Assembly: GCA_030141605.1 (NCBI GenBank)
Contig: JAQGDQ010000503.1
Coordinates: forward strand, 96,978-160,977
DNA: 64,000 nt
Source of the DNA: Tubiluchus corallicola
Lineage: Eukaryota; Animalia; Priapulida
Direction of reading: 5' to 3'
This document shows, in pieces, positions 11,576 through 44,552 of this stretch; position 1 is the stretch's first letter, and every line of letters starts with the position of its first letter. The notes below the pieces were generated by a model. The model saw only the letters and a program-made list of their open reading frames with translations, was not told where the DNA came from and made no database searches. The position numbers were made by a program, and so were the translations under genes.

Positions 11576-12845
11576 TTACACACCTGTGTATTTTCCTGGT
11601 GCTTGATATGAAGAATCATAATCGCATCCAAAAACCTTCCTGTTGAGCTCATTCACTGTCTGCTTCAATTCTCTCTTTTTCTCAATGCACCTGTCTGAGT
11701 TTAGAGCTGGTAGTTTGGTGGATCTTGCAGACATTTCACACGACGTTTTTGTTGAGCCCATTCTGCCATCATACGCTGACTGTCGACAAGGGAACGCACA
11801 TGGTGTCCTTGCCTTGTTCTCCAGAAAAGACTTCGATTATTCTGTCTAGAAGGCAGGTCATTTCCTCCACTCCTTGTGTCGCACGACGACAGTGCCGAGC
11901 TAGCTCGTGTCTCGTCAATTGTCTTCTGACGTTAGTCCAGCAGTCCAGCGGCCATCTCCGTCAATCCAGCACCTTCTGCACACGTGGCAACAGATATGAG
12001 CACTTGTCCTAGTTCATTACCCACATTCGTACTGTGGCCAGCCAACTTCTTCACGACCTTCTTCGTGGAATCCATCTTCAGTATTTTGCCAAAAGTCGAT
12101 GTAACCTTAGCCTTCACCTCAACTAGCCTCTGAAGAGCGTCGAGAGCATATACACTCAAAAGCCATTTTGGAGTTGGTACGGATGGCATTTGGGGAATAG
12201 CCACAATCCTCACTGGTGTTATCATGGCTGAAGCAAATGGCTCGCATGCTGTCAGGTATTGTGCTGTTTTCACTAAGCATGCTTCAGTGTGAGATGCCAA
12301 GAGTTTATTGTATAACTGCGCTGATGTATTCCCCTTGCTTCTCTCTCTCAACAATATCAGAAGACGCTTGCTACATGCATACCTGTATGTTAGTAGTGCA
12401 GGAAACTGCGAACGCTGGCCTACATCGATTTGCTGCAGTATTCCTGGGCACCATGCTGCAACTTTGATATGGCATACTCTACATTCCAGATAGTCAGTAG
12501 CAAGAAGAAAGGTGCCATCCACATCGACTACTTGGCAAACTGTCTTTTAATATCCACAAAGAGCCATTTGTCCTACGCAGTCAGGTTTGACACACTGCAG
12601 TCTCACCTTCCAGAAACGAAGTGGCATCCAAAGAAATAATGGTCTTGCAAAAAACAGAGCCGTGGATGCTGGTGGCTGATTATGAATCATTAGAGGTTGT
12701 GGTGGATGAACCCACATCTGGATGTTCGGCTTCAACTGCCGTTTACCACCAGGTTCAATGATGGAAACAGCTTTAGAGATCCAGGCCTGTTCCCTCTTTG
12801 GTATGGCTTCTTTCGTTTGTATGTCCTTGGCATGGAGGACTGAAT
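11576..12845 (-). pseudogene. Fragmented DUF6729-type protein, probably a DNA-transposon-encoded transposase
   Basis: FFARPLFLWMP..W...L.C, YLEC..C.....W...IL.Q.D...RSQFPALLTY.YAC and LKMDSTKKVVKKLAG..TNVGNE.GQVL.SV.T..EG.GL are hallmarks of this widespread animal family. Frameshifts and internal deletions are present. Confidence 0.65.
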
Positions 12846-14014: not shown

Positions 14015-15008
14015 ATCCTATAAAGCCATTCCTTTCTTCCCAATGCCAGTCTCGTCATTTATGTAATACAAAAACTTTGGCATTTACTCATTGTGTAACT
14101 CTATAAAGCCATTCCTTTCGTTGCGATGCCAGTCTCGTCATTTATGTAATACAAAAACTTTGGCATTTACTCATTGTGTAACTCTATAAAGCCATTCCTT
14201 TCTTCGCAATGCCAGTCTCGTCATTCATGTAATACAAAAACTTCGGGCATTTACTCATTGTGTAACTCTATAAAGCCATTCCTTTCGTTGCGATGCCAGT
14301 CTTGTCATTCATGTAATACAAAAACTTTGGCATTTACTCCTTGTGTAACTCTATAAAGCCATTGCTTTCGTTGCGATGTCAGTCTCGTCATTCATGTAAT
14401 ACAAAAACTTCGGGCATTTACTCATTGCGTAACTCTATAAAGCCATTCCTTTCTTCGCAATGCCAGTCTTGTCATTCATGTAATACAAAAACTTTGGCAT
14501 TTACTCATTGCGTAACTCTATAAAGCCATTGCTTTCATTGCGATGCCAGTCTTGTCATTCATGTAATACAAAAACTTTGGCATTTACTCATTGTGTAACT
14601 CTATAAAGCCATTGCTTTCGTTGCGATGCCAGTCTTGTCATTCATGTAATACAAAAACTTTGGCATTTACTCATTGTGTAACTCTATAAAGCCATTGCTT
14701 TCGTTGCGATGCCAGTCTTGTCATTCATGTAATACAAAAACTTTGGCATTTACTCATTGTGTAACTCTATAAAGCCATTGCTTTCGTTGCGATGCCAGTC
14801 TTGTCATTCATGTAATACAAAAACTTTGGCATTTACTCATTGTGTAACTCTATAAAGCCATTGCTTTCATTGCGATGCCAGTCTTGTCATTCATGTAATA
14901 CAAAAACTTTGGCATTTACTCATTGTGTAACTCTATAAAGCCATTCCTTTCATTGCGATGCCAGTCTTGTCATTCATGTAATACGAAAACTTTGGCCTTT
15001 ACTCATTG
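14015..15008. repeat. 83-84-bp tandem repeat, about 12 copies
   Basis: The unit CTATAAAGCCATT(C/G)CTTTC...GCCAGTCT(C/T)GTCATTCATGTAATACAAAAACTTTGGCATTTACTCATTGTGTAACT is repeated head to tail. Confidence 0.95.
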
Positions 15009-15099
15009 TAAGGTGAATAATGCGAACTAAATTTTCATCATGACAACCGTAAATGGATATGAATGACCATATTAATTGTTACCAAAATGTCAGGAGCGG

Positions 15100-15645
15100 A
15101 AAGCAGACTATGTAGACTAGGAGCGGAGCTGGCGGAAGCACCACGCCCTGCTCTAAAGGGTAGCTGGCAAGAACGTAGTGCACGTAGCAATCCGCACGGG
15201 CCCAAAACGAACATTTCCCAGGCCCTGGCATCCTATGTTTATGAGGCGGAAACGAGGCCCGATACCGGGCCTGTCAAAATTTCTACATCTTGCTGCACAC
15301 TAAATGCTGTAAAATAAACTAATTTAATTACATTCTAATTTATTGTAGTAATTTACCTCATCACCCTTGGTGCCACCTGATAATGTTCATCTTTGTTGAA
15401 TTAAAATTACAAAATAGTAGCAAATTAAACTCACATTGGTTTGTGAACCTGTGCCTCCATTACATCCCAGTATGGTGGGCGTACCCTGGCTGGGGGAGCC
15501 AAACCTTGGGCTCTGGCTGTCCCACAAGCCTGCTCGTGCCGTTTGTCTGTGCCGTAGTGGAACGGGCATGCTGCGGTGGTCCGATGCCGATTGTATTGCA
15601 TATTCATGTTGTCAAGACCACCGCAATGAGCAAAGTAGAAGCATC
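15100..15645 (-). pseudogene. Exons of an unknown gene: copy 2 of the RNFDRPGIGP exon plus upstream Cys/His-rich exon(s)
   Basis: Translates as CRNFDRPGIGPRFRLINIGCQGLGNVRFG and CFYFAHCGGLDNMNMQYNRHRTTAACPFHYG. A short GTAAAT...TTTACAG intron lies at about 15307-15356. Confidence 0.5.
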
Positions 15646-18631
15646 TGAAATGCAAAAGTAAAATTTAGGCTTCATTTCACATTTCATTTTCTTCAAACTA
15701 TTTCAGATTTCACCAGCATCCTAGATTTGGCTTTATGAATTCATAAACTTGAATTTATGTCGAATTCAAGAATATTTTTCCTTTTATGTAAGTTTATAGC
15801 CATTTTATTTTACAATATTTAGGCACTTCCTAGCAAACCGAATGACATTTCAATTCCACCCCTATAGCACTGCACGTCTGCTAAATTGAGGCGGAAATTT
15901 ACTTCCCCATATTCCCCAAGGTTGTATTTCGTGTACAGTCTCTTTCGTGTGGATTTTCACTGTCTAGGAAGAAGTTTTATGCTCAACTCAACTGCCGGGC
16001 TGGGGCTGTCTGCCTCTTATATACGTGCACAGCGTGACCGTGGTACCACTCCTTAGCTGGCTTCATCGAGCGAGCATCTTATTAACATAATTATTTAACA
16101 TAATCTCCTGCTCTTAGTCTATAATTTAACAGGTTCTCTTTACTATCACCTTTGACCTTTATGTTCTTTAGTTTTAGTGGAATGTGAATACGGTTGGACC
16201 CGACTTGCTTGTAAAAAAGAATTTAAAATAATTAGCTAAGTATAGAGTAAATCATGGTTGGCCACATCACTGGAACACTCACCTATCCAGGATGTGACCA
16301 GACCTTCTGATTTACATCTTTATTATTAACTCTTGAACGGCATTTGCACTTGTAAATTGTATTTGCCTTTGTATAAAATAGAAGCACTTGTGAGGCAATA
16401 GTGAGAGGTTCACCTGGAGGAACAATGTGATGTTTAAGACATAAGACACCAGAACCTTATTTCACACATGTAACCTTTTACAAGCAAGTAATGGAGAATT
16501 AGACGAAACACTCCTGCTATAGAATGAGCAAAAGTTGCGAAATCTGCCACCTAAAAGTGAGTACTCCCAATAGCGCGACACTTTTGTAAAAAGAGAATGT
16601 CAACTATTGTTGGCAGGCCTCAACAAGAACAGAACCCCAGTCGTAGGTGTAAAAGAGTTTTGAACACTAAATTTGGACTATAATCCTCAATCACAGTTAG
16701 TAAGGCAAAAATAGACCTCCACAACCTGTACTCTTAAACCACTACAACAATTTCAATCGGGGCACGTTATTGTTGGCTTGATAAGGCTTATCCTAGGCCG
16801 AATCTTACAAAAATAATTCCTCAACTCGATCATCTATGATTTAATGTGTTAATTTAAAAGTCGAAGAGCCAGTATTTGTTGAGAAGAAAGCTTTTATTGT
16901 GAAGAATCTGGCGTGTATTTTAAGGCCTGTTTGGGCTTTACGGTGACAAACAAAGTCATCATTTTGCTCAGCATAACTGTTTATTGTTTGTGTACCATTT
17001 TCACGTCACTTGCCCCTTAGTCATTTACTTCATCATATCTGACACTGTGACGCCATTACCCAAAATATTACATTTTATCTGAAACAAGATATATAAATTC
17101 CTTTAATAAACTAACTCATTTCTATCAAAGGGTCGATTACGATTACGTGAAATTAATGAGAAACTTGCAGTAAATAAAATAAATAACTAAATATTACATA
17201 CATTGTTGGCATTAAATCGTGAGTTCACAGAAACACGTCATCACATGAACACATTGAAACTTAAATGACCGGAAATTGACTAGGATGCAAATATTGAGGC
17301 CAGGTGTCGCCACTTGTAACTGTAAAACGCTATATTGAATTTAACAAAACAAAAATCCTTGACAAGGCCTCTGTAAAAGAAGCTTTGGAATGGTACATTG
17401 TGCGACTTACCGCTAACAGAAATCTCTGATATAAATGTAACTCCCCCCCCCCAACACCTAAATTATCAGTAATGAAGGTAGATGTGCTTGATTTGGCATC
17501 AAATAAGATGAATACAGCAAGTTCAACTCTGAGATAAGTAGCGTAGATATGTTTTCGATACTAGAATGAAGCAAAGCGTGCAACGTATTTCTAATAGTTC
17601 CTGGTTAAACGCTGCCTTCTAGTCAAATCTTTCTGTAATGTGTTGTTAGGCAACATGAATATGTATATATATCATTTTTATTCGCACTCGTGGTACAATC
17701 ACATCAAATCAACAAATAGTTCAACATGCAAAATAACATTAATTAATAAGATTAGTAAGCAGTGTGAATATATACAATTAACTGACACAAGTAAAATAAT
17801 TGTTTGTCTATTTGCTGTTTTGCATTGCTAGCTGTATATTGGTGTTTTTGGGATGGCAAAACTATTAAGACTCAAGTTAAGAAACGTTTATTAAACATTT
17901 TAAAAGTAAATATCATAACAGATAGTCATGCCAAGCCCCCTGATCTGATCCGCTCTGATCTGGTCTCTGGTCTGATCTCCTGAGGTGCGGGCATGACAAA
18001 GATTTTCTAGGCTATCAAGCTCCGGAAGCTTCGGGCGCATCGACCGCCTGCGCTAAGTTCGATTCTGAATCACTTGATCACGTGATACCACACCTTAACT
18101 GGTCTTCATGCCAACATTTCATCAGAATTATTGTTTAGCATAATTTAACACTTTTAACACAATTTAACAGCTCTTCTTTACTCTACAGTAAGATATGTTA
18201 GCATGGCGTACAACTCATTCCTGTCAAAAAATCAAAACAATTACATTCCAGAGCCCATGTAACTTCTTTAATGAAATTTACAGTATGTATTTGTTCATCG
18301 CCAGCATTACCTCTTACATCTAATGTACAAGAAAAACTTTAGAAAGAAAATTTTCATTTCTGTAAAAAGTTTTGTACTCATTACAAATAGATAACAAATT
18401 ATAACCCATTATAGAAGAGGTATGAAATTCGTGCAAAGAAATGGCTATATGGTTTTCACTATATAAGCCACTGTGGTAAAATTTACCAAATCGTTTTTAT
18501 AGTTGTTTAAGCAGGGGAACAATATCACATATAAAAAGAAGACAGTATTTGTGTGATCTAAATGGCAAATTCTAAAGTTTTTCAGACTAGATGTCACTAG
18601 TCACTCACTTCTTTCTTTTTCTCCTCTCTAC

Positions 18632-18692
18632 TCTAGTATCACTGTAGTCTAGTATCACTGTAGTCTAGTATCACTGTAGTCTAGTATCACTC
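18632..18692. repeat. 16-bp tandem repeat (CTAGTATCACTGTAGT), about 4 copies
   Basis: Visible directly. Confidence 0.85.
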
Positions 18693-20015
18693 TAAGTGTG
18701 TAGTGATACTAGGCTCAATTGTGTGACACGTAGAGCATTTATATAGGTAGTGTTAACTAATTAAGTGGTCAACAGAAGTCCAATAGGTAATGTTAAAAAT
18801 AACAAAAACTTTATTAAAACTTTTACATTAAAAAGTAAAAAGGTAAAATCATGCCAAACGCCTCGACTAGTATGTCTGCTGAAATTGTGCCATTGGTCAC
18901 GACAACGGTTGACGGTGGCTCCATCAAAACAAAAAAGCATAGGGAAAAAAACGTTAAAAAACTTGTTAACTGAGAGCAGTTCCGAAGATGAAACTGATTA
19001 TTGAATTAGGATAACTCGAACACTTGGTTATTATGCTAGAATAACTCCAAAAGCTCCTAACTAGTACATCAACGTGGAACCGATAAACGTTGATATCCAG
19101 TGAACACTAAGTGAAAATTAAGAGAAATGTAGTTAACATATACAATAAGATTATTCAGATTAATATAATGCACACAAAATCTGTATTCATTGTTCTTTTC
19201 ACATTTTATGCACTCACTTCAAGGCATTAAGATCACACTGCAAAGAAAGAGTGTTTAATGCTGGCAACTGTTGTACTGAGTCACAATCATTTTTTATTTA
19301 TCTAGTTACTATCTGGCATCTCAATATTATTTTGGCATAGATTCTTATCTATCTTAACCTAAGTTATTTTGATTATTTGCATCTCATGATGTCTAGTGAC
19401 CTTTTTATGTCTAGATTTATTTGTTCTTCATTTCTAATTAAATCTACAATTTACTGATTAAAATAAAATACACTTGGTACTTTACACAGAACTCTGCTAG
19501 TTAGTGCATTAACTATTATGTCTTGCCAATGGATGGTTTGCCAATTGTAGCCGATTTGCATAAATGTGTTGCTAAGCAACTTACTTTTTTATCCCTCTGA
19601 AGCAGACATGTACACATTGCAGAAACCGTATACATAGCTGAACAGTCATAATCTATACAGGATAGCTCCCTCAACCTTTATTAATGACTGTGTATCTTGC
19701 ATTCACCGTTGTTGCACTCAGTCAGAATGAGTCATGCTGCGAGGTTTTTGGTAAGCTATTTCGCCTAGCAAAAAATGACACTATGAAGAAAAAGTCAAAA
19801 AAGAAGAAAAAGCAACATTGGCTGATAGGTTTCATTCTTTCTGCGATACAGTGTTAAAGGATCATTATTTTCTTGTTAGCCCCTATTTTTAGAAGAATCT
19901 TTCTAACTTGGAGTTTTTCTTACCTTGACGCCCTGGTTATTACTGAAGTCTGTTATACCAGCAAAGCTTCTTTCGTGGTAACCACGGATTATCGCGTTCA
20001 TGTGGAGTTTCTGTG

Positions 20016-20229
20016 GAAATGGATCTCTGTTATAGTTGGCTTCACGAACAATCCTTTAAAAAGATAAAGCCCTTCCTCCTCAGCTTCAATGTTTGGGAGA
20101 TATACTTCAGCATCAGTGGAGTTCTGGGGAAGGTTTAGTGGTGCTGATGTGCATTTATCTGGGGCGGAGGCAAGAGGGGTGGTCTCTTCCTAATTGTTCG
20201 TGAAGCCAACTATAACAGAGATCCATTTC
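20016..20229. repeat. Local 37-bp perfect inverted repeat with ~140-bp loop (mirrored at about 60573-60787)
   Basis: GAAATGGATCTCTGTTATAGTTGGCTTCACGAACAAT at 20016-20052 and its reverse complement at 20193-20229. Confidence 0.9.
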
Positions 20230-20310
20230 TGCAAGAGTTCAACATAAGTGATAGAGTTATTTTAGTCTTCATTTTTATTTTATTTTTTTATTTTTATTTT
20301 TTTATTTTTT

Positions 20311-21837
20311 TTATAAGTAAGACAACATATTATCAAAGGCACCTGGTCTTTTGAGCGCCATTTGGGTCAGTGTCCTAATGATAGTTCTTCCATATCTATT
20401 GGGCCACTCCTCATTTTGTTCGCTTAAACCATGCCCCACCCATTTGGGTTGGTGACAAATACATTTTGTTTCAAACAGTCTGCATCTTGCACAAAGATTT
20501 CTACAGTATGATCTCCAATTTCTCACATTGTAGTGGAAATTGTGCTTTTTGGACTTCACTAAGACATAAAAAACCCACATAGCCTGAAAATAGGAGTTAG
20601 TCCCTGGATAGAGTAATGATCCGATTCCTTTTAATGCAAACGTCCCCAAGGGGTCAGTTTCATCAAACCAGATTTCTTTGAATCTAACTTCTTCAATCGG
20701 ATCAATGATCCATGTGCTTGATGGTATACATCGGAGGCTGGAGTAAGTTTCAGACAACCTAGAGTGCAATTCCAGCATAACCTCAGTATAGTTGTGAGGT
20801 TCTTTTCCTGCATAATAGAAATTAATGATGTCATTTATTCCTTGGGCGGGTGTGATGTTTACAGTGTCTGCACAGGCTAGCCTATCACAGTAAAAGATAC
20901 ATTCAGTGTTTTCTAGAGAACTTGACCATGGTTTCATTATATAGTATGTGGCATATTGGAATCCTAGTTGAGTTAGTCTAGATATTGTTTTATCTGATAG
21001 ATTTTCTGCAATCAGTTTAAGTAGGACCTTTTTAGGTTTATACTCAAAACAGAGGTCTATTGCAACATCGACAAGATCACAGTAATATGTCGGATTCATG
21101 ACTTCAGCATCAAAAGTCAACACTGAGATTTCACCTCGTCTGAACTGATGTTTTAATGAATTGATTGTCTTTGGGTTAAATAGATCACCGTCAGTAAGGT
21201 TGTTCCTTAGGATCTGTTCCCAGTATTCGACACAATGACGACAAAATGTGTTCAAAGGCTTAGAATTGAAAGTGTCCTCTAAAAGGGACATATTGGTTTC
21301 TACTAAACTATTATAAACTACATACAATGGGTTCATGAGATGCAAAAACCCTGATAAAATTGATCCGTCTCCTTCAGCTAGGCACACAAGACCCCCTGGT
21401 TCGAAGTGAGTACTTCCTAATACTTCTAGAAATTTGTTTATACTAGTGCTGGTTATTCCAAACGGCCTAGCAATGTGGTGTAAATAGTGGCCTTTCCTTC
21501 TGGCTTTTGTGCTTGGTTCCATCCTAGGTAGTCTCACCGTACCCATGGGCGGTCTGATTCTAGATGTTGTTGCTGTTTGCCTGGTCTTGATGTTGATGTT
21601 TTTGATATCTTCAAACTTGTGGGCAACTATGATCCTAGAAGATAGAAACTCAGATAGTGGAGGCAAGTTGATTGTTTCGTTCACTTGGGTGAGTTTAATC
21701 CTACCCCTACTAAGGTGTTTGATTGCTCTTCTCAAATCTGAATAAGTGATATCAGCAGGGATGTAGAGAATTGGTGCTAACTTATTTTCTAAGTATATCC
21801 CTACGCAAGAAGCGTACAATACACACAACCAATACAA
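20311..21837 (-). CDS. Endogenous viral element: C-terminal ~490 aa of a Mononegavirales-like L protein (connector, cap methyltransferase, CTD); 5'-truncated but open
   Basis: K-D-K-E tetrad in order (FGITSTSINK, LTFDAE, VLLKL, KPWSSSLENTECIF) and the SAM-binding motif CLAEGDGS. No introns. The stop codon overlaps TTATAAAAAAAA and is followed by an A-rich tail. The first ~13 codons (TTG start) look host-derived. Confidence 0.85.
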   Translation of the reverse strand: MYWLCVLYASCVGIYLENKLAPILYIPADITYSDLRRAIKHLSRGRIKLTQVNETINLPPLSEFLSSRIIVAHKFEDIKNINIKTRQTATTSRIRPPMGTVRLPRMEPSTKARRKGHYLHHIARPFGITSTSINKFLEVLGSTHFEPGGLVCLAEGDGSILSGFLHLMNPLYVVYNSLVETNMSLLEDTFNSKPLNTFCRHCVEYWEQILRNNLTDGDLFNPKTINSLKHQFRRGEISVLTFDAEVMNPTYYCDLVDVAIDLCFEYKPKKVLLKLIAENLSDKTISRLTQLGFQYATYYIMKPWSSSLENTECIFYCDRLACADTVNITPAQGINDIINFYYAGKEPHNYTEVMLELHSRLSETYSSLRCIPSSTWIIDPIEEVRFKEIWFDETDPLGTFALKGIGSLLYPGTNSYFQAMWVFYVLVKSKKHNFHYNVRNWRSYCRNLCARCRLFETKCICHQPKWVGHGLSEQNEEWPNRYGRTIIRTLTQMALKRPGAFDNMLSYL

Positions 21838-21979
21838 CGAATTATTGAAATTCCGGCAATTCTTAAACTAAGTCCAACTATATTAGTGTCCAATAAAAGG
21901 GCAACAAAACGTTTTATAAAAGTGAACTGCAAACAATTGACACTAAAAAATTGTATCACCTAACATCAATCTATATAAC

Positions 21980-24680
21980 TTACTTGCAGAGAGATACCGC
22001 TTTGCTTAAAACTTGAACGAGCTCGCCAACTCTTCCCAAAGCTGGGTGTTCCCTATAGAGGCTGCTAATGTCCTCCCAACCGAAACCTACATTTGCCTTG
22101 ATGACGGCGAAAAAATGCTTGCACAGCATTCTCGAGTGTTGGAATGAAGGGCAAGAGCAAGAACAGCACTCATCACCATTACCAAATTTTACGGTATAAA
22201 TAGTGGAGGCATCTTGTTCGCTGGAGACATTGAACGTCTTATGTCCAATTACTGTAACTAAGGCTACCTAAGAATATGAAACAGTAAGTACTTAACCTGA
22301 AAATACAAGGCATTATAGCAGCAAATGGTGCCTATTGAAGATTCACTTATATGGAACTACGTTTATTGTATCGCTAACCTGTACAGAAAGCACATTACAT
22401 CAACAACATCATGTATTGCAATATATTGCCGAACACTAAGAAATGTGATGTAATACTTATAAACCGAAATCCATTATTGCTGGTAATTTCTGATTCAAGT
22501 ATACCATACATGTACCTGTGACGGCTTCACTTTCTCCATTTTGTCCCACATATCCTCAAAAATTGTTCTTGGCCTGTTCTGCAGCCAGGATGGGACTTCC
22601 ACAGACCAACTTCTGTACAAGTGAGAGCTCTTCACATTCATCTGCTCATAGCTAGAAAATGTATGAGATCTGAATTAAAAATACAGTTTGCAAATATATT
22701 GGACTGCTCTCCGCTGTCAATGGAGGCAGAACGGATGGCACCGCGGCCTACACCGTGCGGCATGTCTCAACTAACATGTCAATGCCAAACCAAAACCAAA
22801 ATGAATAATAAAATCAAAATGACAATTTATTACAAAAAAATATTCCAAATAGCTTACCGAACAGAGTAGAATAGAGCAAGCCTGAAGTGTGAACAGAGCT
22901 GAGGTGAGACGACCACTGACCAGGATCTACAGCAGACCTACCCTTTTTATAAGCTCAGGTGTGCACGTGACTAGTGGCTCCTACTAACACAAAGTCAGAA
23001 TAAGAGTCGATGTGCTAGTTAAAGCCACGTTCACACGCACACCTGAGAAGTCTGCTGTATTCCCCTGCCAGTATTACACTATCTCATCACAGCCCTGCAG
23101 TACAATATTTTAGATATTTTCTTTACCAATAAATAACATACAACTTTAACCGTTGTAACTTCAGAGAACTACACAAACAAGAATACTTGAGAAACTAGCA
23201 AAAGCTTCTCCAAGCCGAATAACAACCTTATTACAAAATAAACAAATTTAATATCCTGATTTGGTCACCCTGTCTCTCATAAAGGTGCTGCTAATCTGAA
23301 AATCAGGAAATTATGTTAGAAAATAATTTTCCACTTTAATAATCTCAACTGTTTGTTTACAAATGTAACTGTAACTTTCTGTTATTGTTCAATGAAAAAT
23401 AATAACAGATATGGTAGATGAACTTTTGAAAAATAGTACCGCTGGTATTTTGCTGGCAGCAAGTGTGTTATTAGAACATCCAGCAGTTCACTGCCGCCTC
23501 TTGCTGAGAAATCCATATTTCAGATCCTCGTTCATCCTCTCTACACCGTTATTCGTGTTCACAGCCAAGAGGAGTTCTTCTGGCCTAACAGAGCACTGCC
23601 GCCTCTTGCTGAGAAATCCATATTTCAGATCCTCGTTCATTCGCTCTACACCGTTATTGGTGTTCACAGCCAAGAGGAGTTCTTCTGGCCTATAAGCATT
23701 GCTCCATTTCTGAAACGTATTATCTTAACATAGTGGACATGTTAGCTATACTGAACGGTACCGTACAAACAACTTTACGAAAAAAAAGCCTACTTGGTTA
23801 GTAAATTGTGACATTTTACATAAACTGACACAATGCTTATCAGATGGTATTTTGTCAAGTTTTAGAGTTTGCACATTAACATGAACAATTCATTAATTGC
23901 TACCCAATTAAAAGTTTAAAGTTGTTATCCAATTATGGTTTAACCTGTAATATAAAAAATTAATAGAACGTGTAAAACTAATTTATAAATTTAGCTGATT
24001 TAAAAATATCTAATAGGTTAATAACACTCACGTAAATTTCAGTTATACTCACCTTGATTTCTGGCAGCCAGGTTTTACCAAACCAGTGCTGAAGTTTGGA
24101 GCTCTCTTGGTATATCTTGCAGGACTGGAGAGCTCTCAGGGAAGCTTGCAGCTTTGCATCAGAGCTAGCTCTGGCAACTTGTCTTAAGCGGCACTTTATT
24201 TCCTCAACATGTTCTGGATTAGCTGCCACCCCATTTGATCCCTTACTGAGCCATCTTACCCAGGTTTGCTCACGGTGGAAATCACATAAAAATACTTTAA
24301 TGCCTAAAATGCAAGGAACAAAGTTACGCATAGTAAAAGAAGCTGATAATCATGACCACATTAGCATGATTACGTCTTCACCCAACAAAATAATACTCGT
24401 TTTTCAGAAATCTGTACCAATTACATTAACCCCTCCCAAAAACATTTCACTAGTAATGACAGGTTGAGTATTCACTTTTGCACATTGGCACATTTAAGGG
24501 CATGTTCTCACAGGTAAATGTGATCTACATGTAGATATCCTATTGTTTACCTAGAAATGTTTCTTCCAGAGCTAAAGTTTCTTCTGATGCAAAATCCACC
24601 ATTGCAAACTGATGCAAAGGAGTCCAGCTTTTTACAACAGCCAAAGCTTTTGCGATGGTTGTTCTTGTTGCAAATGAAAC
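21980..24680 (-). pseudogene. Intron-containing MULE/Mutator-type transposase with SWIM zinc finger (decayed)
   Basis: Exons encode FAMVDFASEETLALEETF, VFLCDFHREQTWVRW, NTNNGVERMNEDLKYGFL (tandemly duplicated ~105 bp), VPSWLQNRP and the SWIM motif CSCSCPSFQHSRMLCKHFFAV, with GT-AG boundaries. Confidence 0.8.
22700..23104 (-). mobile_element. 405-bp solo LTR (gypsy-like, 4-bp TSD ATAT), copy 1, inside a MULE intron
   Basis: Termini TGTACTGC...GCAGTCCA flanked by ATAT on both sides. The empty site CTAAAATATATTTGC is present at about 58209-58223. It contains CACGTG, TATAAAAAG, TCAGT and a GTAAG donor. Confidence 0.85.
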
Positions 24681-25194
24681 AGTTGAAAGAGCTTATCGTT
24701 TTTGAACTGAAATGAATAATGGCACTAATCAGAGTGTAACTAGCAACACCTTTATACTCGCAACTGCATTTTTCAGCAAATTCTTTATAATTATTGGACT
24801 CATCATCATTGTTCTAAATATGCTTGTTGTCACTGCTATTCTCAAATATAAAAAGTTGCAAACATCGTCGAATTGACTGGTGCTTAATTTGTCAGTGGGT
24901 GATGGATTGTTTGGCAGCATGGCATTGATGCTTGTAGACGGTTCTTGCACATGAATGTTATTTCTGCAAATAAGTGCTTATTTATTGTTATGCAAAAGTT
25001 TTAGTTATGCAAACTAAATTAACGAATGCATCCATAATCGAAAGTAAGTAATGAATCACTAATGCATTTTAGTTTACTGAATAGCGCTCCAAACTGAGTT
25101 TTGCGAAACTCTGTTTCTACTTGTCAGAAAAATTGTCAACTAGTTTACAGCTACAATTTCTTACAATTTTTATTCGTAGCAGCATTCTACACCA

Positions 25195-25749
25195 TTAAAA
25201 TTGTTGTTGAAAGTGACGATAATGTAATTTGCCAAAGATATGCCGAGATGTCACGTGTCTCTTCGAAAAACATAATATATGGTGATCGTCATCATCACTA
25301 TCATCATCTCTCTCGGTCAAGTCAGTCTCGTTGGTAGCCAGCTCCGAATCACAACTCACATACTTCTCGAACGTTGTTTCCGATAAGTTTAGTTCACAGT
25401 GGCGATGAAGTCCCAAATGTTTCTTTCTTGTACAGACATCTCTGCGAGTAAGATATTCCCTCCGCTCGGCAGGCCTTTACACACCGCATTTGCATGTACC
25501 AGATAGTCAGAGCTTTCTCCGGTGGCTCTATATCTGATGTTCGCAATTCCTTCCATTTGTTTGTGACTTGATTTTTTCGTAAGCTTCCTTCAGTTTCTCC
25601 TTAGACGCGAAAATGCTGGATACCGTCTGTTTATTTAGGCCGTATTCTTCATAAATTTTGCTTTGTTTTGCACCAGTCTTGATTTTTTCGATAATCTCGA
25701 TTTTTGTGACGAGCTCAATAGCTTTCCACTTCTGCTTGATACTGCTCAT
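25195..25749 (-). pseudogene. Internally deleted Tigger/pogo (CENP-B-like) transposase
   Basis: MSSIKQKWKAIELVTKIEIIEKIKTGAKQSKIYEEYGLNKQTVSSIFASKEKL is a psq-type HTH. It is followed by a GLPSGGNILL remnant and the C-terminal FEKYVSCDSELAT. The DDE domain is missing. Confidence 0.8.
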
Positions 25750-26399
25750 TGTGCCGTTTTGGTGGTGAGCAAAGGGCAGAAAAATGGCGAAACAATGTTC
25801 GTCTCGTCCATAAACAATACCAACCTCGTTCCCAGCAGGGTTGCCAGTATGGCATTTTCTTCCAGATCCAAAACCGAAATGCTGCTAGTAGAGTAGTAGT
25901 AAAATCTTTATTTGCCATTTTAAAACATTGACCATCATATTAAAAGACAGACAATCAGTGTTAGTTCATATAAAAAACATACACTGTTCTGGGCAAATGC
26001 GTCTGGTGCAAGCTAAACTATAAGTGCAACTAGAAATTCAAAAATAAAATATAAACTAGTTTTGCAAGGTCTAGGAAAAAGGAAATTATGATTTGAGTAA
26101 GTATCATCGTGTTCGTATGTCGGATATTCAAAACGAGTCATTAAATGTTTTTTTTAATTTAGACTTGAATATTGATAAAGAGCTGCTGTGTTTTAGTGAT
26201 GTCGGTAATGAATTCCTAGGTTGTATTGCTTGCTTAGTTATGGAATTCTTTCCACATTGGTTGTTCGTTTTAACATCATTAGAATGTACATCGTTCTATT
26301 AGTTATTTAGAATGTACATCGTTCTATTAGTTATACAGAAGTAAAATTGATTCAAAGTCCAAAATTCTGAATAGGTTACAATTCAATTACATTTACATG

Positions 26400-26640
26400 C
26401 ATAGCAAATGTTTAGTAGACCTTGTGTAGTTCTGCAACAATTTTAGGAGAATTCCACTCATGAGTTATGTGCTGATAATAACAAAGCTGATTCAATGATG
26501 GTGTTTTGTGTATGTCATAGTTTGAACACTCACAAAAATAATGGCGGGGGCTCTCAGTCGAACTGTTGCAGCTACAAGAGGGGTCATCGATGTATTCCTA
26601 GAAAACTTGTGAAAAATTGGCAATGAACATATTTGTTCAA
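26400..26640 (-). pseudogene. Probable LINE ORF2 C-terminal (CCHC-like) fragment; empty site of the nucleoprotein-like EVE
   Basis: Translates as EYIDDPSCSCNSSTESPRHYFCEC, similar to the C.C....ES..HYF..C tail of CR1/L2 ORF2. Mirrored at about 54330-54564. Confidence 0.45.
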
Positions 26641-26944
26641 ATCTGTTAAATTAAAACTATAAATAGCTGCCATACATAATTTGATGTTGAGTTTTAACAG
26701 CCTGTAAAACAGACGTTTTATACAGCAAATGTGCTGGCGGAAAGTATTATGGCAATACACACCTACATATGAACAAACGCACTCTCTCCCTATAACTTGC
26801 TAAATTTGGCTTAATTGTACACATGGATCTGCACTTATAAATTATTGTTGGTCTTCAAGACTGACAAATGTGTGTGTGCCCTAGACAAGCATACGTAACA
26901 CCACCATACACCAAGTGTGCCACACTACAGTACTCTATATTTAC

Positions 26945-29900
26945 AAGTTTCAGATTTTCCATCACTGAATTTCCTTAAGGCAACTAAGAAGTCGTATTCA
27001 TCCGGAATGAAGCGCCAATTTTCGCGCCAGATGAAGAACTTCCTACTGATATAGGAAAACAATTAAACTCCTTTTTGGTATCACCAATTTCCTGGCAAGC
27101 TGACTGTACAACAGAAAGTTTCCTAAAAAATTTTATTTCCAGCATGCCAGTGATTTTCTTACATCCTGCTATGTCTTCTTCGTTAGGTGTTCTCTTCAGT
27201 GGTTTACACTCTTTGTGCATCTCAGGTATGTACAATAAGTGGCCCACTGTTTCTTTATACTCGTCGTTCATTGTTATTACGTTCACTAAATTGTGTATAT
27301 CCAGTGCTGTCAGCCCTTTATTGTTTGGCTTTTCAAGGCAGACTCCATGCTAACATTGTGTAACGTCACTTCTTGTACCTGTGTGTGAATGCGCAGCTGC
27401 GTATAGTGGAATGTCACCTTCTTTATTACAAATGTCAAGACCACTTCCGTACAGCAGAGCTGTGTTGTCAAACTTACCATTTTTATTTATAAAATAATGT
27501 AGGCTTAGCTCAGACCTCTCTATTGCAGCAATCGACTTATTGCTAGAGCCAGGAACTCCTAACAGATGTTGGAGTAAAACACGTAGTGTTTCTGTGCTTC
27601 CAACTTTAACTACAGCTATAAGAGCTGTCTGTTCATCCTTATTGCTAGAGCTGGGACTACAGCTATAAGAGCTGTCTGTTCGTCCTTTTATGCTAGAGCT
27701 GGGACTACAGCTATAAGAGCTGTCTGTTCATCCTTTTATGCTAGAGCTCTGACTACAGCTATAAGAGCTGTTTGTTCGTCCTTTTATGCTAGAGCTGGGA
27801 CTACAGCTATAAGAGCTGTCTGTTCGTCCTTTTATGCTAGAGCTGGGACTACAGCTATAAGAGCTCTCTGTTCATCCTTTTATGCTAGAGCTCTGACTAC
27901 AGCTATAAGAGCTCTCTGTTCACCCTTATTGCTAGAGCTGGGAACTCCTGACAAATGTTGCAGTAAAATGCATAGTGTTTCTGTGCTTCCACCTTTAATT
28001 AGCACCATGACAAAGTAATAATTCCAGCGTTTCATGATGCCCGTGTGCAGCTGCAGTCATTAGAGCTGTCACATCAAATGCATCACAACCATTACAATCA
28101 GTATTGCGGTCAAGAGCCAAGAGACATTCAACAGTAACATTGCCATGGGAAAAGTCTGTTTGTTATCCTTGTTGTTACATGATGTTAGAATGCAACTTCT
28201 CTGCCATAACAAGTTTATGGCTTGTTCATCTCTGTTACCAGCAGCAATCAAAGGTGCAGACCAGCCGTCTTTGGATTTGGCATTACAAATAGCACCAAAA
28301 GCCAGAAGAATCAATATGGTTGCATAATTGCTAGCACGTGTAGCATACATAAGAGGCGTCCATGTATCTTTATTACTGACATTACAGTCAGCATTACTTC
28401 TAAGCAGCAATTTAAGTCAGCAACACCAGCGACTTAACTCCTTCCCTACATTCGAGTCTCCCTTCTTAGCTGCCCAGATAAGAGCAGTCTGTCCAAGCCT
28501 GTCACTGACATTACAATCAGCTCCATTAGCTAGTAAGAGCTGAACTACATTCAAATGTCCTTTATAAGCTGCTAGCATCAGAGCAGTTTGTCCATACTTG
28601 TCACAGACATTACAATCAGCTTCACTAGCTACTAAGAACTGAACTACATTCACATGTCCTTTAAAAGTTGCTTTCATGACAGGAGTCCATCCATTGTTGT
28701 CACTTACATTACAATCAGCTCCACTAGCTAATAAGCTCTATAAGCTACTAGCATCAGAACAGTTTGTCCATGCTTCTCACAGACATTACAATCACCTCCA
28801 CTAGCTAGTAAGAGCTGAACTACATTCAAATGTCCTTTATAAGCTGCTAGCATCAGAGCAGTTTGTCCATACTTGTTACAGACATTACAATCATACAATC
28901 AGCTCCACCAGCTAGTAAGAGATGAACTACATTCAAATGTCCTTTATAAGCTGCTAGCATCAGAGCAGTCTGTCCATACTTGTCACAGACATTACAATCA
29001 TACAATCTGCTCCACTAGCTACTAAGAGCTGAACTACATTCACATGTCCTTTATAAGCTGCTAGCATCAGAGCAGTTTGTCCATACTTGTCGCAGACATT
29101 ACAATCATACAATCTGCTCCACTAGCTACTAAGAGCTGAACTACATTCACGTGTCCTTTATAAGCTGCTTTCATAAGAGTCGTCCATCCATCATAATCAG
29201 CTCTACTAGCTAGTAAGAGCTGAACTACATCCACATGTCCATTGTAAGCTGCTTTCATGGCAGGTGTCCATCCATTGTTGTCACTTATGTTACAATCAGC
29301 TTCACTAGCTACTAAGAGCTGAACTACATTCAAATGTCCTTTATAAACTGCTAGCATCAGAGGAGTTTTTCCATACTTGTCACAGACATTACAATCATAC
29401 AATCACCTCCACTAGCTAGTAAGAGCTGAACTACATTCACATGTCCCTTATAAGCTGCTAGCATCAGAGCAGTTTGTCCATACTTGTCACAGACATTACA
29501 ATCATACAATCAGCTCCACTAGCTAGTAAGAGCTGAACTACATTCACATGTCCTTTATAAGCTGCTAGCATCAGAGCAGTTTGTCCGTACTTGTCACAGA
29601 CATTACAATCATACAATCAGCTCCACTAGCTAGTAAGAGCTGAACTACATTCAAATGTCCTTTATAAGCTGCTAGCATCAGAGCAGTTTGTCCATACTTG
29701 TCACAGACATTACAATCATACAATCACCTCCACTAGCTAGTAAGAGCTGAACTACATTCACATGTCCTTTATAAGCTGCTAGCATCAGAGCAGTTTGTCC
29801 GTACTTGTCACAGACATTACAATCATACAATCACCTCCACTAGCTAGTAAGAGCTGAACTACATTCACATGTCCTTTATAAGCTGCTAGCATCAGAGCAG

Positions 29901-30190
29901 TTTGTCCGTACTTGTCACAGACATTACAATCATACAATCAGCTCCACTAGCTAGTAAGAGCTGAACTACATTCAAATGTCCTTTATAAGCTGCTAGCATC
30001 AGAGCAGTTTGTCCATACTTGTCACAGACATTACAATCATACAATCACCTCCACTAGCTAGTAAGAGCTGAACTACATTCACATGTCCCTTATAAGCTGC
30101 TAGCATCAGAGCAGTTTGTCCATACTTGTCACAGACATTACAATCATACAATCAGCTCCACTAGCTAGTAAGATCTGAACTACATTCAAG
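26945..30190 (-). pseudogene. Ankyrin-repeat plus cGAS-like/Mab-21 nucleotidyltransferase (cGLR-like) pseudogene, left copy
   Basis: Many ankyrin units ([29 protein letters not shown]), then FPISVGSSSSGAKIG-[frameshift]-PDEYDFLVAL at about 26975-27060, which is the GS...[DE]h[DE]h NTase motif. Multiple stops and frameshifts. Confidence 0.75.
27608..27942. repeat. 48-bp tandem repeat derived from half an ankyrin unit (about 7 copies; about 14 at 52645-53360)
   Basis: Unit ACTACAGCTATAAGAGCTGTCTGTTCGTCCTTTTATGCTAGAGCTGGG. On the ankyrin strand it reads KDEQTALIAVV. Confidence 0.85.
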
Positions 30191-31316
30191 TGTCATTTAT
30201 TTGTTACAGTAAAGTACGTATAACTCAAAATTGTTACATTAAAGTAAAGTATTTGTTACTATCTTACGCTGATATTAAATGTTTTAAGATTACACATAGA
30301 CAAGTTAATCTCTGTACAAATATCGCTATAGCTTCTAGGTGGAAACCATGACATTTTTAATACATATAGGACAGTAGGATCAGAGCGATATATTATGTAT
30401 GCATTTGTAATCACCCTTAATTACGACTGCTAAATATGTTTTGATTCACTAAGAAAACTCAACTGTTTTACAAAAACATGCAATAGTGTTTGAAACAAAG
30501 CATAATTGAAGCAAAGTAAATCTGAGTTTTTTTAAGCAAAGTAAAGCAACATGGGCTGGCTTTGCAATATATCGGTAAACTGACTTTCGAAGGTGCTGAA
30601 AATTGACTCAAGACTGTGTAGAAAAAGCGTTCTAACAAAACTAACTCGTAATATCCATCATTGCACATGCATTAAAAATAGTAATACACAATCGTGCAGC
30701 ACGGTTTCTTTTTTTCGACAGCAAATTCTCCAAGACCCCTACTGTTAACACAGCAAAACACGACAGTTCCTTTCATAAGGTGTTTATTGCAGTCTTTATT
30801 TTCTAAAGGAGAAAAACAAAAGAATACATAAAATTTTCAGTAATGCAATTTGAACAAAACTACAGAAATTTGAACAAAAAAAAATTACACAGAAAATTGC
30901 TTTCTAATTAATAAACTTAGATTTACAAAAATCACTTACTTCGTTTGGCTAGAGAGCGCACACTGTTTATGGTTGAAGCATGACATTAAATTTCTCACAT
31001 AAAAATTGCATTATCCACATTACAAGTCTCTGCTATAACCAGTCAACTCTTTTGGCTCCCTCATGCGGGAAAAAAACAAATTATATGGGTAATTTGCCCA
31101 TAACACCTACCAAGGGTCATTAGAAGTTTTTTTATACCCTGTGTTCAACTGTTGGGTTATTTTTCTGTTTTGAGATCACAATTCAGAATCATTTCACTGT
31201 GTACAAGTATGCGCTGCACTGACTTGGTATTCGAGTGTCATTAAACCAACTGAGGATAGCCGGTATTGCATGAAAGAACAACAACAAAAATATTTAAATG
31301 TCCTTTTTTAGTTTAA

Positions 31317-34076
31317 CCTTTATCTTACCGCGTATACTTCTAGCTGTCCGTTTTATTCATTTTTACATGGATGTGTTCTATTAACATACCTATTGTATGT
31401 AACAAGTTTCAGGCAAATCCCTTCACGGGTTACGGAGATATGGAATGTTCCATTTATGGAACATTGGGAAGATCAGCACGTATTACTTACAAAAGGACAC
31501 ACTGAAGATTGATGCATGTTGCATTGCATTTTCGATGTTTATTTACAGCAATACATGACAACACAATGTATGTATACAACACATGATATTTCTTCATGTG
31601 CACGACTGAACATGCACATGCCTATCACACTGCATGTGCATATACACCTCGCCCTAGCGGCGGTGGTACACGATAAAGCAGTCCTTCTGCCTCTCACTGT
31701 GGAGCCGCACTCCGCACTTGTTGCACATTAGTTTCGTGTTTGTTTTACATACTTTACATCGTCCCTGAGTCGTTGTCACAGCCTGGTGATTTCGACCATC
31801 AAACCTCGCGTCGACTGGAAGGCCCATAGGCCCGTGACCTACGCCTCGAACAGCAAATGGTTCAGTGTCCGCTTTTAGTAGGCACAAAGCCACATTCCGC
31901 CGAAAGTCCAAATGAGTCATCACTGTCACGATGAAGGACACAGTAAAGCCGCCACGCTGCAACAATGGATACGTTCACTGCATTTAGGAAGAGTGGCCAG
32001 TACCACTTTTTTCCTCTGATCATTGGCCTGTACGATCCTAGAAGGCGATCAAATAGGTCCACTCTGCCCATACCCTGATTGTATGCATTGACAAGGTGAG
32101 GCTGGGCAACGTCCTTCTCTCCCCCTTTTGTTCTCCTTTTCACCTGGTGAATCGGAAGATGGGTTTGATAGTTGCTAGCTACCGCTACAACTGAATTGTC
32201 GGTCCACATTGTTACGTAGACATTGCCATCAAATGTGTAATCAAATGTGCCCCTATCCTTCTTGGCAAGTTCTTTCTTGGAAATCATAGATTTCGAAGCA
32301 CCACGTGTTCTGTTTTCTTGGACAGTTCCTGTTGCTTTCAAGTTTGCCGCATACAAATCACTCAACAGATCATACGAAGTAAAAAAATTATCAAAGAACA
32401 GTTCGTGGCGGTGAACGTCCGAGTTTTCCGAAATAACCTTCACCATATTCTGTACAACTCGAGTTCCTAACGGGATGTCACGATCTGCACCCTCTTCCTT
32501 CCCTTGGTACAGTCGCATTGCATATGGGTAGCCGTCAGCACCGCAGAAACACCATATTTTGTACCCAAATCTAATGGGCTTTCGTTTTATGTACATCTTG
32601 CCCCCGTGTCGCCCGAAATAAGGCACCATGCTTTCGTCTACGCTCAAAAGATTGTGGAACACACCAAACCGAACAATGTTGGCATTGAGAACGTCATATA
32701 ACGGCATTACTTTTGCGAACTTATTTCCACGAGCAAGGTTCTGATTATCGGCGAAGTGAATATACCTTTTTATTTCCTGAAACCTGTTTCTGCTCATTGC
32801 GTTGGAAATGACTGGAACTCCCAAATCAGGCTGTGTTGACCAGTAGTGGTGTTCTTCAGGAAGACTGTGGTAACCCGACACAACTAGACATCCGATGAAC
32901 CGTCATACTTCTGACTTTGTGACTGTAAAGCTGGGCTTGTTTTTATCCCGACGTGCGTAGAGTAGTGTCTGCTCAACAACATCATTCATCAAATTGTCGG
33001 AAAAGATTTCTCTCCACAACTCGTATGGAGTCTCGCCTTCCAATGCATTCAGTTCATGAGACAACGTGATATCAGCAGTGGATAATATCTTGTCGAAGTC
33101 AGTCTTCTTTCTCCAATTTGGAAGTTGTCTTCGTTCTCCACGACGGGCGGATTTACTTGGTGGTTCTTCATTCTCGACTACATCGTCATCCGCTTCCTCC
33201 TCCACTTCCATCTCTCCCGCCGGCTCGAAGTCAACATCTTCTTGGCTGTCCTCCAAATCACTGTCTTGATCAGCTTCGTCTCCTGCGGCGGGAGGAAGCA
33301 GGACCACATTGACTGGGTGTTCACTCTGTTCCAGTGTGTCGCGTGCCTCCGCTAGAGTACGAACACGTGAGGACTTTCTCCCGTAGAAGAACGTGGTATC
33401 GATAACCTAGAAAAATTTGGTCGAGCTCTATTTAGGTCAACTTACAACACACTATGCTAATAACGTAACACGCTAAATTAGATAAATTACAATTTACATT
33501 GACTACAATAGCTAGAACAATAGCAAAAATACGTGTTTTGTAACGCTGGTATCCACAAAATGTTGTGTTTCACTCAACTTGTTAGGAAAGTATCAAGAAC
33601 AATGGCAGTGAGCGCTACGCTACTTGGCAATAAGCTGCACACTGTAAGCATGACTGTGGGGAGCCACGCTCCACTGTACACTGCAACCTAAAACGTGCTG
33701 ATCCTACCAATGTTCCATAAATGGAACATCAAAATATTACAGTATTTTTTTAGTACTTAGCAACCGAATGTACGATCTGTTATATTGCCAATCAATACCT
33801 TGGAGTGTAAGCTTTTAGGCAGTGCAGCCAATTTCCACTGAAGTTCACTCTGCACTTTTTCAGGCCAATTTGAAATTGCGCGGTCAAATTTCGTATTTTT
33901 AGGCCTTAGTTGGGCAACCATGAAAAATTTGAATCTCAATATAAAAAGTTCAGTTTCCCAACAAAGTAAGAAACATGTCAGGACATCACGATAGAGGTAG
34001 AATTGCCTCGATAAATTAAGCATGTGAGCTGCGATGGCGCCATAAAAAGTATGTTCCATTTATGGTAAGATAAAGG
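31317..34076 (-). mobile_element. Near full-length piggyBac transposon (PGBD3-like transposase, frameshifted)
   Basis: TTAA TSDs at 31313-31316 and 34077-34080 and 13-bp TIRs CCTTTATCTTACC. Transposase motifs SVDESMVPYFGRH, KPIRFGYKIW, FFDNFFTS, YNQGMG.VDLFD and a C-terminal Cys-rich finger are split across ORFs 32903..33307, 31862..32881 and 31654..31965. Confidence 0.95.
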
Positions 34077-34109
34077 TTAAGAAGCTTTATTAAGTTTTTA
34101 TAATAATTT

Positions 34110-34585
34110 TGTGAAAGTTATTTATGAAGTTGAAATTGAACACTTGTAGAAAACAACTAAACACAAGATTACATGTTTGCACAAAACTAAACACTTTTAT
34201 TGCACTAAATACACAGTAAAATGCACAAGTAAAATGAAGATCACAACTGCTGCACAGCACTGAGTGTGTGACAGAGAGACAGTGTGTCCCATGAGTTGCA
34301 CGACTGCACTGCCTGAGACAGAGAGACAGTGTGTCCCATGAGTTGCACGACTGCACTGCCTGAGACAGAGAGTGACTAGCAGTGAAATCTAGCCAGTTTA
34401 TATAGGTAGAGAACTATGCAAAAACTTGGCTTCACATATCCCATTACAGTGAAATAGGGGAGATACAATGAGTTTGAATATTCACTGGACCGAACAATTG
34501 TACTAAGGGTGAGTTGAACTAGTAAATGTTAAAGTAACTAATCAATAGTTGGCAGCACCTAAAATATACAGTTACAACTTTCACA
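34110..34585 (-). mobile_element. Solo LTR with 5-bp TSD (AATTT), left copy
   Basis: TGTGAAAGTT...AACTTTCACA inverted termini with AATTT on both sides. Internal TATATAAA and AATAAA on the minus strand. Confidence 0.85.
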
Positions 34586-34599
34586 AATTTCAAATACAA

Positions 34600-37500: not shown

Positions 37501-37501
37501 C

Positions 37502-37572
37502 GTAGTAGTAGTAGTAGTAGCAGTAGTAGTAGCAGTAGTAGTAGCAGTAGTAGTAGTAGCAGTAGTAGTAGT

Positions 37573-37602
<30 letters not shown>
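37502..37602. repeat. Compound (TAG)n/(CAG)n microsatellite (mirrored at about 44522-44623)
   Basis: Visible directly. Confidence 0.95.
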
Positions 37603-37604
<2 letters not shown>

Positions 37605-39128
37605 TACGACCACGAGAAATTTTTGATCAGTCTTCGATTTTCTGAAGCTTCACAACCAGCAGAATGGGGGCATTTGATTGGCTACTGTATTTAAGCACCA
37701 GTACCACTAAACATCGTCGATAGAATGGATGGGTGAGCAGTGGAAAACTGCTTCTGACTGTTTAAACACTATTTATCTTGCAGAGTAACAGAGTACAGAC
37801 ATATGAATAAAAAATTATCCTATAAAATTTTATATTATTAATATTAATGCCTTTGCTCCACAAGGGAGTTATTTTTTTTCCAATTTTGGATGTGTCCATG
37901 AGTTTAACAAATATATGGTTTTGATTGAGAAGGGTCCAGAAAAGAGTCCATTAAAAGAAAACTGTTGCATGTTCAAAAAAGCTGGATGCACAAAAAGAAA
38001 CAGGAAATCGGCAGAAAAATTCTACCGCAGGTGGCGCTTCAGTGCCACGTGAGTTAATTTGCATGAGGAAAATTTGTATGGAAACCGATAGAAGCAAATA
38101 AAATCGGAAATTATAATTCACCTGGCGCCATCTATGATGTAGCATAGCAATCGTTTTCATTGCATCAGCAAATAACTGTCTTGTTCCTAAAGACTGCATG
38201 TGTCCTAAACCAAGAAATCATTAACATTTAGTTGCCTATTAGTTTTGTGAAAATTCAACACGTCATTTATGCCACAACATAGAACAACATTATGCAATTT
38301 AGTATGTGCATAGCTATCTATCACTTTTTCATCTAGATCTCTTCTCGCATTACACGCAGATTACAGCAGATCAGATTACAAGCAGATTCACCAATTTCGT
38401 TACTGCCCATTCTTTGAAGCCTCCTCCGGTGATTATGATTTTGCCAGTTCGAGATGACCTGTTTGATGTCAGGCATAGAAATCGTGAATTGCTGATTGCC
38501 ATTTGTTTGACTTTTATGGCAAGTAGCGGTTGGTTCTATCTGTGATATTTGAGAACATATTAATCTAACTTTGCTACAAGCAAGACAGTGGAGCAATTTA
38601 ACGTGGAGGCTTCACCTTGAATCTGTCACCAGCTTGTCTGCTGCAAACACCTCGCTGTTTCTGCAAGCTAAACATTTTTTGCAGTTCTCGCTGCTTTTCA
38701 CAAGGGAAACAAGGTGATCACCAGCTGCAGCTCATCAAACACTAGATGTCAGGTGTTCCGCGTGCCAACAAATGAAGCAACCGACCTTGCATGAATTTTT
38801 GTAATTTTTAGTGGTGATAATAAGATTTTGCGCGATTTTTTTTATTACGTCACTTATATAAATTAATATACTGAAATCAATGCACATAGGAATTTTGCAC
38901 TAATTGCTGGATATAAAAAAATATTAAATGAATAGCATTTGTGAAAGTCATGTTTAAAGTTGTAGATCACTCACTTTGTAGAACAAGAATAAAAAACTAT
39001 ACTGCATATTTGCACACAAAAGTGTTTATTAAACTACATACACATGAGTAAAATGACTGTTGACAGGCGAGCACGCAGATCTCGCATGGACGTATACTTA
39101 CACATTCTCTTGTATACTCACATTTGCA

Positions 39129-44520: not shown

Positions 44521-44552
<32 letters not shown>

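Follow-up and report, generated by a model that had tools for sequence, protein, structure and literature searches.

The window, meaning the whole stretch of 64,000 nucleotides of DNA analysed here, carries three copies of an element that resembles the 3' end of a mononegaviral L gene. Copy 1 occupies positions 20311–21813 of the minus strand and comprises 500 open codons followed by a stop, within a stop-to-stop frame of 518 codons (20311–21867) whose numbering is used for all residues below. An earlier interpretation made from the DNA letters alone (hereafter the sequence-only reading) had proposed an open cap-methyltransferase frame of about 490 codons, and this frame proved to be real, as the longest frame in 200 shuffled versions of the region 15001–27000 reached 180 codons against the 518 observed. 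The same reading had described one L element extending over 20271–21837. The element and its tail end at 20271 stand, whereas the locatable 5' edge lies at 21813 rather than 21837 and the window holds three copies rather than one. Copy 2 (59101–60531, plus strand) retains the tail, and a 110-nt deletion equivalent to 21538–21647 breaks its upstream frame, leaving the methyltransferase (MTase) frame open from M116 (403 aa). Copy 3 (62320–62952, plus strand) ends within the MTase, at the equivalent of 21181, where a fold-back junction is found.

Copy 1 appears to be laid out as a presumed connector of about 110 codons, followed by the MTase domain and a probable C-terminal domain, with the earliest in-frame ATG codons at 21546 (M108) and 21522 (M116). 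Herein, the first ~110 codons would be viral; the 94 codons that follow the 5' junction gave no match to connector profiles (164, 49 and 135 of 500 shuffles scored equally well or better). The region behind the MTase, 183 aa long, is the second shortest when set against 67 full-length L proteins (151–348 aa, median 252) and lies within their range, and its scores against C-terminal-domain profiles were weak, with 4, 11 and 217 of 500 shuffles equal or better. Copy 1 encodes the MTase of a mononegaviral L and probably the L C-terminal domain as well, and its stop would be the natural L stop. Neither an RdRp nor a capping domain was found in the frame by Pfam, in agreement with the absence of both domains noted earlier.

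The MTase domain spans 20872–21495 on the minus strand (codons 125–332) and reached 156.8 bits with a profile from which the element had been left out. The K-D-K-E tetrad and the CLAEGDGS motif reported by the sequence-only reading are both present and fall in conserved columns of an alignment with 73 relatives. At the tetrad positions K145 (21435), D253 (21111), K284 (21018) and E322 (20904), the same residue is carried by 71, 73, 73 and 71 of these 73 aligned L MTases, respectively. In the SAM loop LAEGDG, which starts at residue 163 (21381), the first glycine is found in all 73 relatives and the second in 68. Pfam returned PF14314 alone for the frame, with an E-value of 0.0014 that falls under the cut-off. 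Furthermore, a HMMER search against 1.84 billion protein representatives yielded 15 matches at E ≤ 0.001: ten with a Mononegavirales RdRp domain, four fragments whose best family was PF14314, and one with no family. The top match was the L of soybean cyst nematode nyami-like virus (E 2.4e-13, 30% identity). Among the 99 proteins fetched, the highest named scores belonged to this same virus (66.5 bits), Socyvirus heteroderae (50.8) and forcipomyiae 2 virus (46.0), while 38 paramyxovirus-like L proteins scored 19.6 at most.

Other searches were run in addition. The nearest ESM Atlas clusters were giant-virus FtsJ-like (0.88–0.89, beneath the lead level of 0.9), and the PDB sequence search with the L fragment gave a weak match to an L only (8izl, E 0.071). 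Single-sequence AlphaFold models were poor (pLDDT 37), the named top fold matches of the L-fragment model being viral polymerases. A word-based homolog search for the L fragment among longer proteins returned nothing, and relatives of neither the L fragment nor P0005 were found in viral or metagenome contigs. With 14 of the 15 HMMER matches being L proteins or PF14314 fragments, sequence comparison supports the ORF as part of a divergent mononegaviral L, the origin put forward by the sequence-only reading. The alternative which that reading had raised, a cellular FtsJ/CMTR methyltransferase, was checked, and the matches are to viral L instead.

The affinity of the donor virus was addressed with three trees. 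Tree 1 (FastTree) held 74 MTase sequences, 26 of 100 having been dropped because the domain was missing or matched poorly. Tree 2 (IQ-TREE) used 30 of the tree 1 sequences, and tree 3 (IQ-TREE) combined 25 of those with 11 paramyxovirus-like records, whose paramyxovirus labels were deduced from motifs and genome size. The branch of the element measures about 2 substitutions per site. In tree 1 it falls within a group of nyami- and xinmoviruses (SH 0.90) with its sister unsettled, and in tree 2 its position has no support. In tree 3 it is placed with socyviruses and xinmoviruses at a support of 64, outside the paramyxo-like (UFBoot 100), lispi- (100), rhabdo- (94) and xinmovirus crown (97) clades. 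The MTase phylogeny that had been suggested as a check succeeded in separating the element from these crowns, while a grouping with the nyamiviruses, which provide the best sequence matches, is supported by 64 at most in IQ-TREE. It is fair to state from the MTase tree that the donor would be an unplaced lineage nearest Nyamiviridae/Xinmoviridae. That it fits no named family tested suggests an undescribed virus, the trees being built on the MTase only and having no named reference for Chuviridae, Artoviridae, Pneumoviridae or Filoviridae. Divergent mononegaviruses have been reported from tunicates (bioRxiv 10.1101/2024.12.15.628590). As a separate observation, a 2042-aa xinmo-like L (P0035) stands on a 6-Mb contig as an annotated gene of Papilio machaon; it is a probable near-full-length L EVE in this butterfly.

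At the 3' end of copy 1, a gene-end-like TTAT-A8 that includes the stop codon is followed by five units of one T and four to seven A (20271–20316, minus strand; 46 nt, 37 A). The stop TAA is formed by the T and the first two A of TTAT-A8, and the successive A-runs measure 8, 7, 5, 7, 4 and 5, with a single T between runs and the T positions identical in copies 1 and 2. Within the 64 kb, at least 33 A or T in 45 nt occur only in this tract and its copy at 60486–60536. The earlier description of a stop followed by a degenerate A-tract is borne out. A perfect 37-bp inverted repeat (20016–20052 and 20193–20229) is located just downstream of the tail.

Viral gene ends were examined for comparison. 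The Socyvirus genome carries CTTAAG-A5/6 at five gene ends. A further comparison used 46 viral L genes that carry an A-run behind the stop, with the caveat that the first such run may not in every case be the genuine gene-end signal. The stop is formed by T plus the run, in the same way as here, in 3 of them and lies within 4 nt in 7, and TTAT precedes the A-run in 2. The genome runs on for at least 31 nt past the A-run in 42 of these 46 L ends, whereas the element has an A-rich tail instead. An A-rich tail at a gene-end-like signal, in place of further genome, favours a polyadenylated mRNA template, and the element was likely copied from polyadenylated L mRNA. The T-interrupted tail departs from a plain, newly made poly(A). 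A possible source of the interruptions is a reverse transcriptase that slipped on the T-A8 unit, and template slippage at 3' repeats has been described for UnaL2 (PMC3747384).

The 5' side was studied in Logan contigs, where empty sites and further copies were also sought. X2 corresponds to sample S1 and X3 to sample S2 of another study; the contigs bearing the stretch come from DNA or unlabelled runs, and X5, which contains almost none of the stretch, was uninformative. The element is present, with host–virus junctions, in samples S1 and S2, and X2 contigs connect the viral part with the 5' flank (21784–22073). The window copies have their 5' junction at 21813/21814, and a second form continues with different DNA: in X2 and in X3, a contig follows the element up to 21813 and then runs on into the same non-window letters (loose ends of at least 255 letters in X2 and 176 in X3). 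As a rough guide, binned X2 depth was about 185 for the second form, compared with 270 where the junction is of the window type and 165 in the unique flank. X3 cover is missing at 21814–21880 and 20935–21094, and these holes were not counted as evidence. The presence of the second form in both samples is most simply explained if 21813 is a later DNA breakpoint. This 5' edge is probably secondary, having arisen at the DNA level, and the letters of the second form beyond it, which may be either viral or host, may include the original 5' end.

Between the viral part and the adjoining gene lies a host-like spacer of 230 nt (21814–22043, minus strand) with a GTAAGT donor-like site near 21983. It borders a SWIM zinc-finger gene exon (22044–22267, minus strand; PF04434, E 1.1e-6), which is broken at 22044 in this haplotype and for which both samples show a second form beyond that point. 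Given what is known of SWIM transposases, the gene is presumably of the Mutator-like transposase type. An intronic location of the element, with the SWIM gene intact, was considered and dropped in view of the second form of the exon. The idea that X3 represents RNA, raised by its uneven depth, was rejected as unprovable; a contig at 22044–22464 spans the presumed intron unspliced. Further DNA-level junctions in the neighbourhood lie at 22044, 21181, 21537/21648 and 23119/19792, and in X3 at 21095.

On a larger scale, the window is an inverted duplication (19792–39062 against 43011–61010) centred on a tandem array at about 39.6–43 kb. When it was compared in 800-nt pieces, the best matches differed by 0.1–4.5% outside the ankyrin repeats and by 0–0.4% in the EVE unit. 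The segment 58213–64000 consists of nested tandem and fold-back rearrangements of the 19792–23122 unit, which are not an artefact of this assembly alone because the duplicate-specific joints 22700>23109 and 23119>19792 were found in X2 contigs. Copy-specific joints and breakpoints likewise occur in contigs of S1, a sample that may be the source of the window, and in X1 contigs terminate at 21537 and at 21207, the latter a copy-2 variant. Between copies 1 and 2, 4 of 1746 sites differ, and between copies 1 and 3, 4 of 1942; these distances of 0.2–0.3% agree with the young integration that had been proposed. An X3 contig differs from the element at 7 of 719 sites, and one copy in X3 stops at 21095, within the MTase. 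Duplication after insertion is reported to be frequent among Aedes aegypti EVEs, 126 of 276 of which share at least 98% identity (PMC6580184).

Several other sequences are found in the window. Short, very high-copy repeats occupy 22701–23108 and 25892–26273 (summed X2 depth 100,000–290,000 against 165 for the unique flank), the first of which is missing from the flank of copy 2. Remains of a piggyBac-like transposase lie at 31862–33406 (minus strand) and 48666–49334 (plus strand; PF13843, E 2e-72), a DUF6729 fragment at 11932–12546 (minus strand; E 1e-41), and tandem ankyrin-repeat exons at 50798–52168 (plus strand), mirrored at 28446–30200. A degraded ORF1/ORF2 fragment at 34789–37261 (minus strand) and 44499–47327 (plus strand), which is presumably LINE-like by its motifs and had no Pfam match, stops before the RT domain. 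Intron-like sequence and the transposons of the window point to an animal genome.

The plus strand also contains a 1073-nt insertion (54565–55637) with an open frame of 352 codons, or 347 from the ATG at 54581. This is the N-like gene of the sequence-only reading, which had considered that it might come from the same virus as L. It is missing from the mirror arm at 26394/26395 and thus present in one arm only. The insertion is blunt, with 1-nt microhomology and neither target-site duplication (TSD) nor A-tail, and because of these features it would have entered differently from the L element. No meaningful match to its ORF was obtained in Pfam, the PDB sequence search, homolog searches or the Atlas, and no relatives were found in viral or metagenome contigs. 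It did not align with Socyvirus N or with any of 308 ORFs from 80 mononegaviral contigs. Against a profile made from 21 partial N proteins of paramyxo-like type it scored −1.8 bits (251 of 1000 shuffles equal or better), and with 18 profiles derived from 34 upstream ORFs the score never exceeded 1.0 bit. A fold search, made with a poor model and meaningless either way, returned 0 matches at E ≤ 0.001. The ORF may be a very divergent N, and the L virus may or may not have been its donor.

Altogether, the element is interpreted, with moderate confidence, as the endogenous 3' end of L from an unplaced mononegavirus, retrocopied from mRNA and rearranged later, that persists as a non-functional fossil with its frame open through youth. 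L mRNA would have been polyadenylated at its gene-end signal and copied by the reverse transcriptase of a host retroelement, after which the DNA copy would have integrated; slippage during reverse transcription would have yielded the T-interrupted tail. The locus would later have been broken at its 5' side and joined to the disrupted SWIM gene in a Mutator-like region. Finally, the element would have been duplicated through DNA rearrangements, its copies now decaying, presumably under neutrality. As for the insertion route, the chances of LINE-type target priming are evenly balanced.

A different entry is conceivable in which a viral cDNA, made from mRNA or antigenome, was captured during double-strand-break repair and ligated, through end-joining or microhomology, to an A/T-rich tract of the host; the tail would then be partly host DNA, with no LINE endonuclease involved. 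This proposal is the most serious competitor, though an unlikely one, and it draws on the target site. No word of five or more letters is common to the flanks of the junctions at 21813 or 21837, and the best TSD candidate elsewhere is a 7-mer, a length of at least 7 being reached by 121 of 300 random controls. No empty site, that is, no joint spanning the element, appeared among the Logan contig joints listed. The missing TSD and the interrupted tail speak for repair capture, and the neighbouring 1073-nt insertion is equally blunt and free of tail and TSD. Insect and isopod EVEs have been reported without TSDs as well (PMC2987831, PMC4231630). However, no comparable tract exists in the rest of the 64 kb, and it is unlikely that the L stop would have hit one unless a viral A-run guided it; moreover, TTAT-A8 fits the layout of viral gene ends.

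The target site also bears on a classic LINE retrocopy, in which target-primed reverse transcription from the poly(A) would have halted at 21813, with the insertion's original ends preserved as the junctions of the window. The sense-strand 3' fragment with its gene-end-like signal and A-rich tail is well accommodated by such an event, and a degraded fragment at 46.7–47.4 kb is presumably LINE-like by its motifs, with no Pfam confirmation. The bat L retrocopy eEBLL-1 is described with the same pattern, comprising a termination signal, a poly-A tail and a TSD of 9 bp (PMC4865735). Published criteria for LINE insertion combine the tail with a TSD (PMC2987831, PMC4865735), but the TSD is absent here, the second form runs past 21813 in both samples and the neighbourhood is full of DNA-level junctions, which together make a classic LINE event improbable. 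From the mRNA retrocopy of the sequence-only reading, the mRNA-like 3' end is retained, whereas the 5' truncation is not supported as a LINE signature, given the lack of a TSD and the second form beyond 21813.

The non-functional nature of the fossil was considered in the light of its open frame. Because the copies are so alike, an open frame is expected by chance: the chance of acquiring no nonsense change is 0.79 at 0.3% divergence and 0.46 at 1%. The frame is likely open only because the element is young; on the other side stands the MTase frame, which is still open in two of the three copies. Across 12 distinct variants, 5 synonymous and 7 non-synonymous, no significant purifying selection was detected (P 0.09–0.22 against neutrality). 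The six S2/X3-specific variants, a subset chosen post hoc, comprise 4 synonymous and 2 non-synonymous changes (P 0.02–0.055) and hint weakly at either constraint or a second viral template, while the six variants of S1 and the window comprise 1 synonymous and 5 non-synonymous changes.

Exaptation, whereby the host keeps the MTase and the C-terminal domain from M108/M116 as a stand-alone enzyme for cap or internal adenosine methylation, would draw on this hint, as 4 of 6 S2-specific variants lean synonymous. It could further invoke the catalytic residues, all of which are present, and the frame from M116 that is open in copies 1 and 2. The retained piece also corresponds to the MTase–CTD unit, reported to be active alone in RSV (PMC8130918). 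Nevertheless, the copies are too alike for the open frame to carry meaning, the 5:1 excess of non-synonymous changes in S1 and the window runs the other way, copy 3 and one X3 copy are cut within the MTase, and a retrocopy keeps the 3' end anyway; exaptation is considered very improbable. An equally slight chance is given to a more ambitious combination, in which the element is the sole trace to date of a family-level undescribed mononegavirus that infects the animal now, retrocopied with slippage at the gene-end signal, and the host is starting to use the MTase–CTD, with its frame open from M116 in two copies, as a stand-alone RNA methyltransferase. It is scarcely credible that the element is an assembly artefact, viral RNA present as a contaminant, or an FtsJ gene of cellular or giant-virus origin. 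The large inverted duplication of the window, with its fold-back junctions, and the FtsJ-like Atlas neighbours would favour such readings, but the junctions and copy-specific breaks recur in independent contigs, the sequence matches are L proteins and the named top fold matches, albeit of a poor model, are viral polymerases.

Endogenous fragments of mononegaviral L are common and well described, and the element at this locus, read as a young fossil, speaks more of an undescribed virus than of a new host gene. Its copies are young, so that its sequence is probably close to that of a living virus; it may serve as a useful bait with which RNA libraries can be searched. In addition, it shows a gene-end signal with an A-tail in an invertebrate-type genome and illustrates the loss of original junctions through later duplication. 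A surprise would come only from an MTase that is expressed and under selection, for which the evidence is slight. A narrow literature search, with supplements excluded, found no MTase-only EVE described.

Among known viruses, the L proteins of soybean cyst nematode nyami-like virus and Socyvirus heteroderae (Nyamiviridae) share with the element the K-D-K-E tetrad, an LAEGxG motif and a similar gene-end layout, whereas identity reaches only 28–30% and no supported grouping was recovered in the three trees. Among endogenous sequences, arthropod EVEs and NIRVS resemble it as long-branch mononegaviral L fragments in repeat-rich DNA that are often duplicated and reported without TSDs (PMC2987831, PMC4231630, PMC6580184). 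In the insect EVEs of one of these reports poly-A tails were not apparent (PMC2987831), in contrast to the gene-end signal and A-rich tail seen here. The element differs from the bat endogenous bornavirus-like L, eEBLL-1, in being a young MTase–CTD fragment with no TSD in an invertebrate-type genome, and it shares with eEBLL-1 the form of an L mRNA copy with a termination signal, an A-tail and an open frame (PMC4865735).
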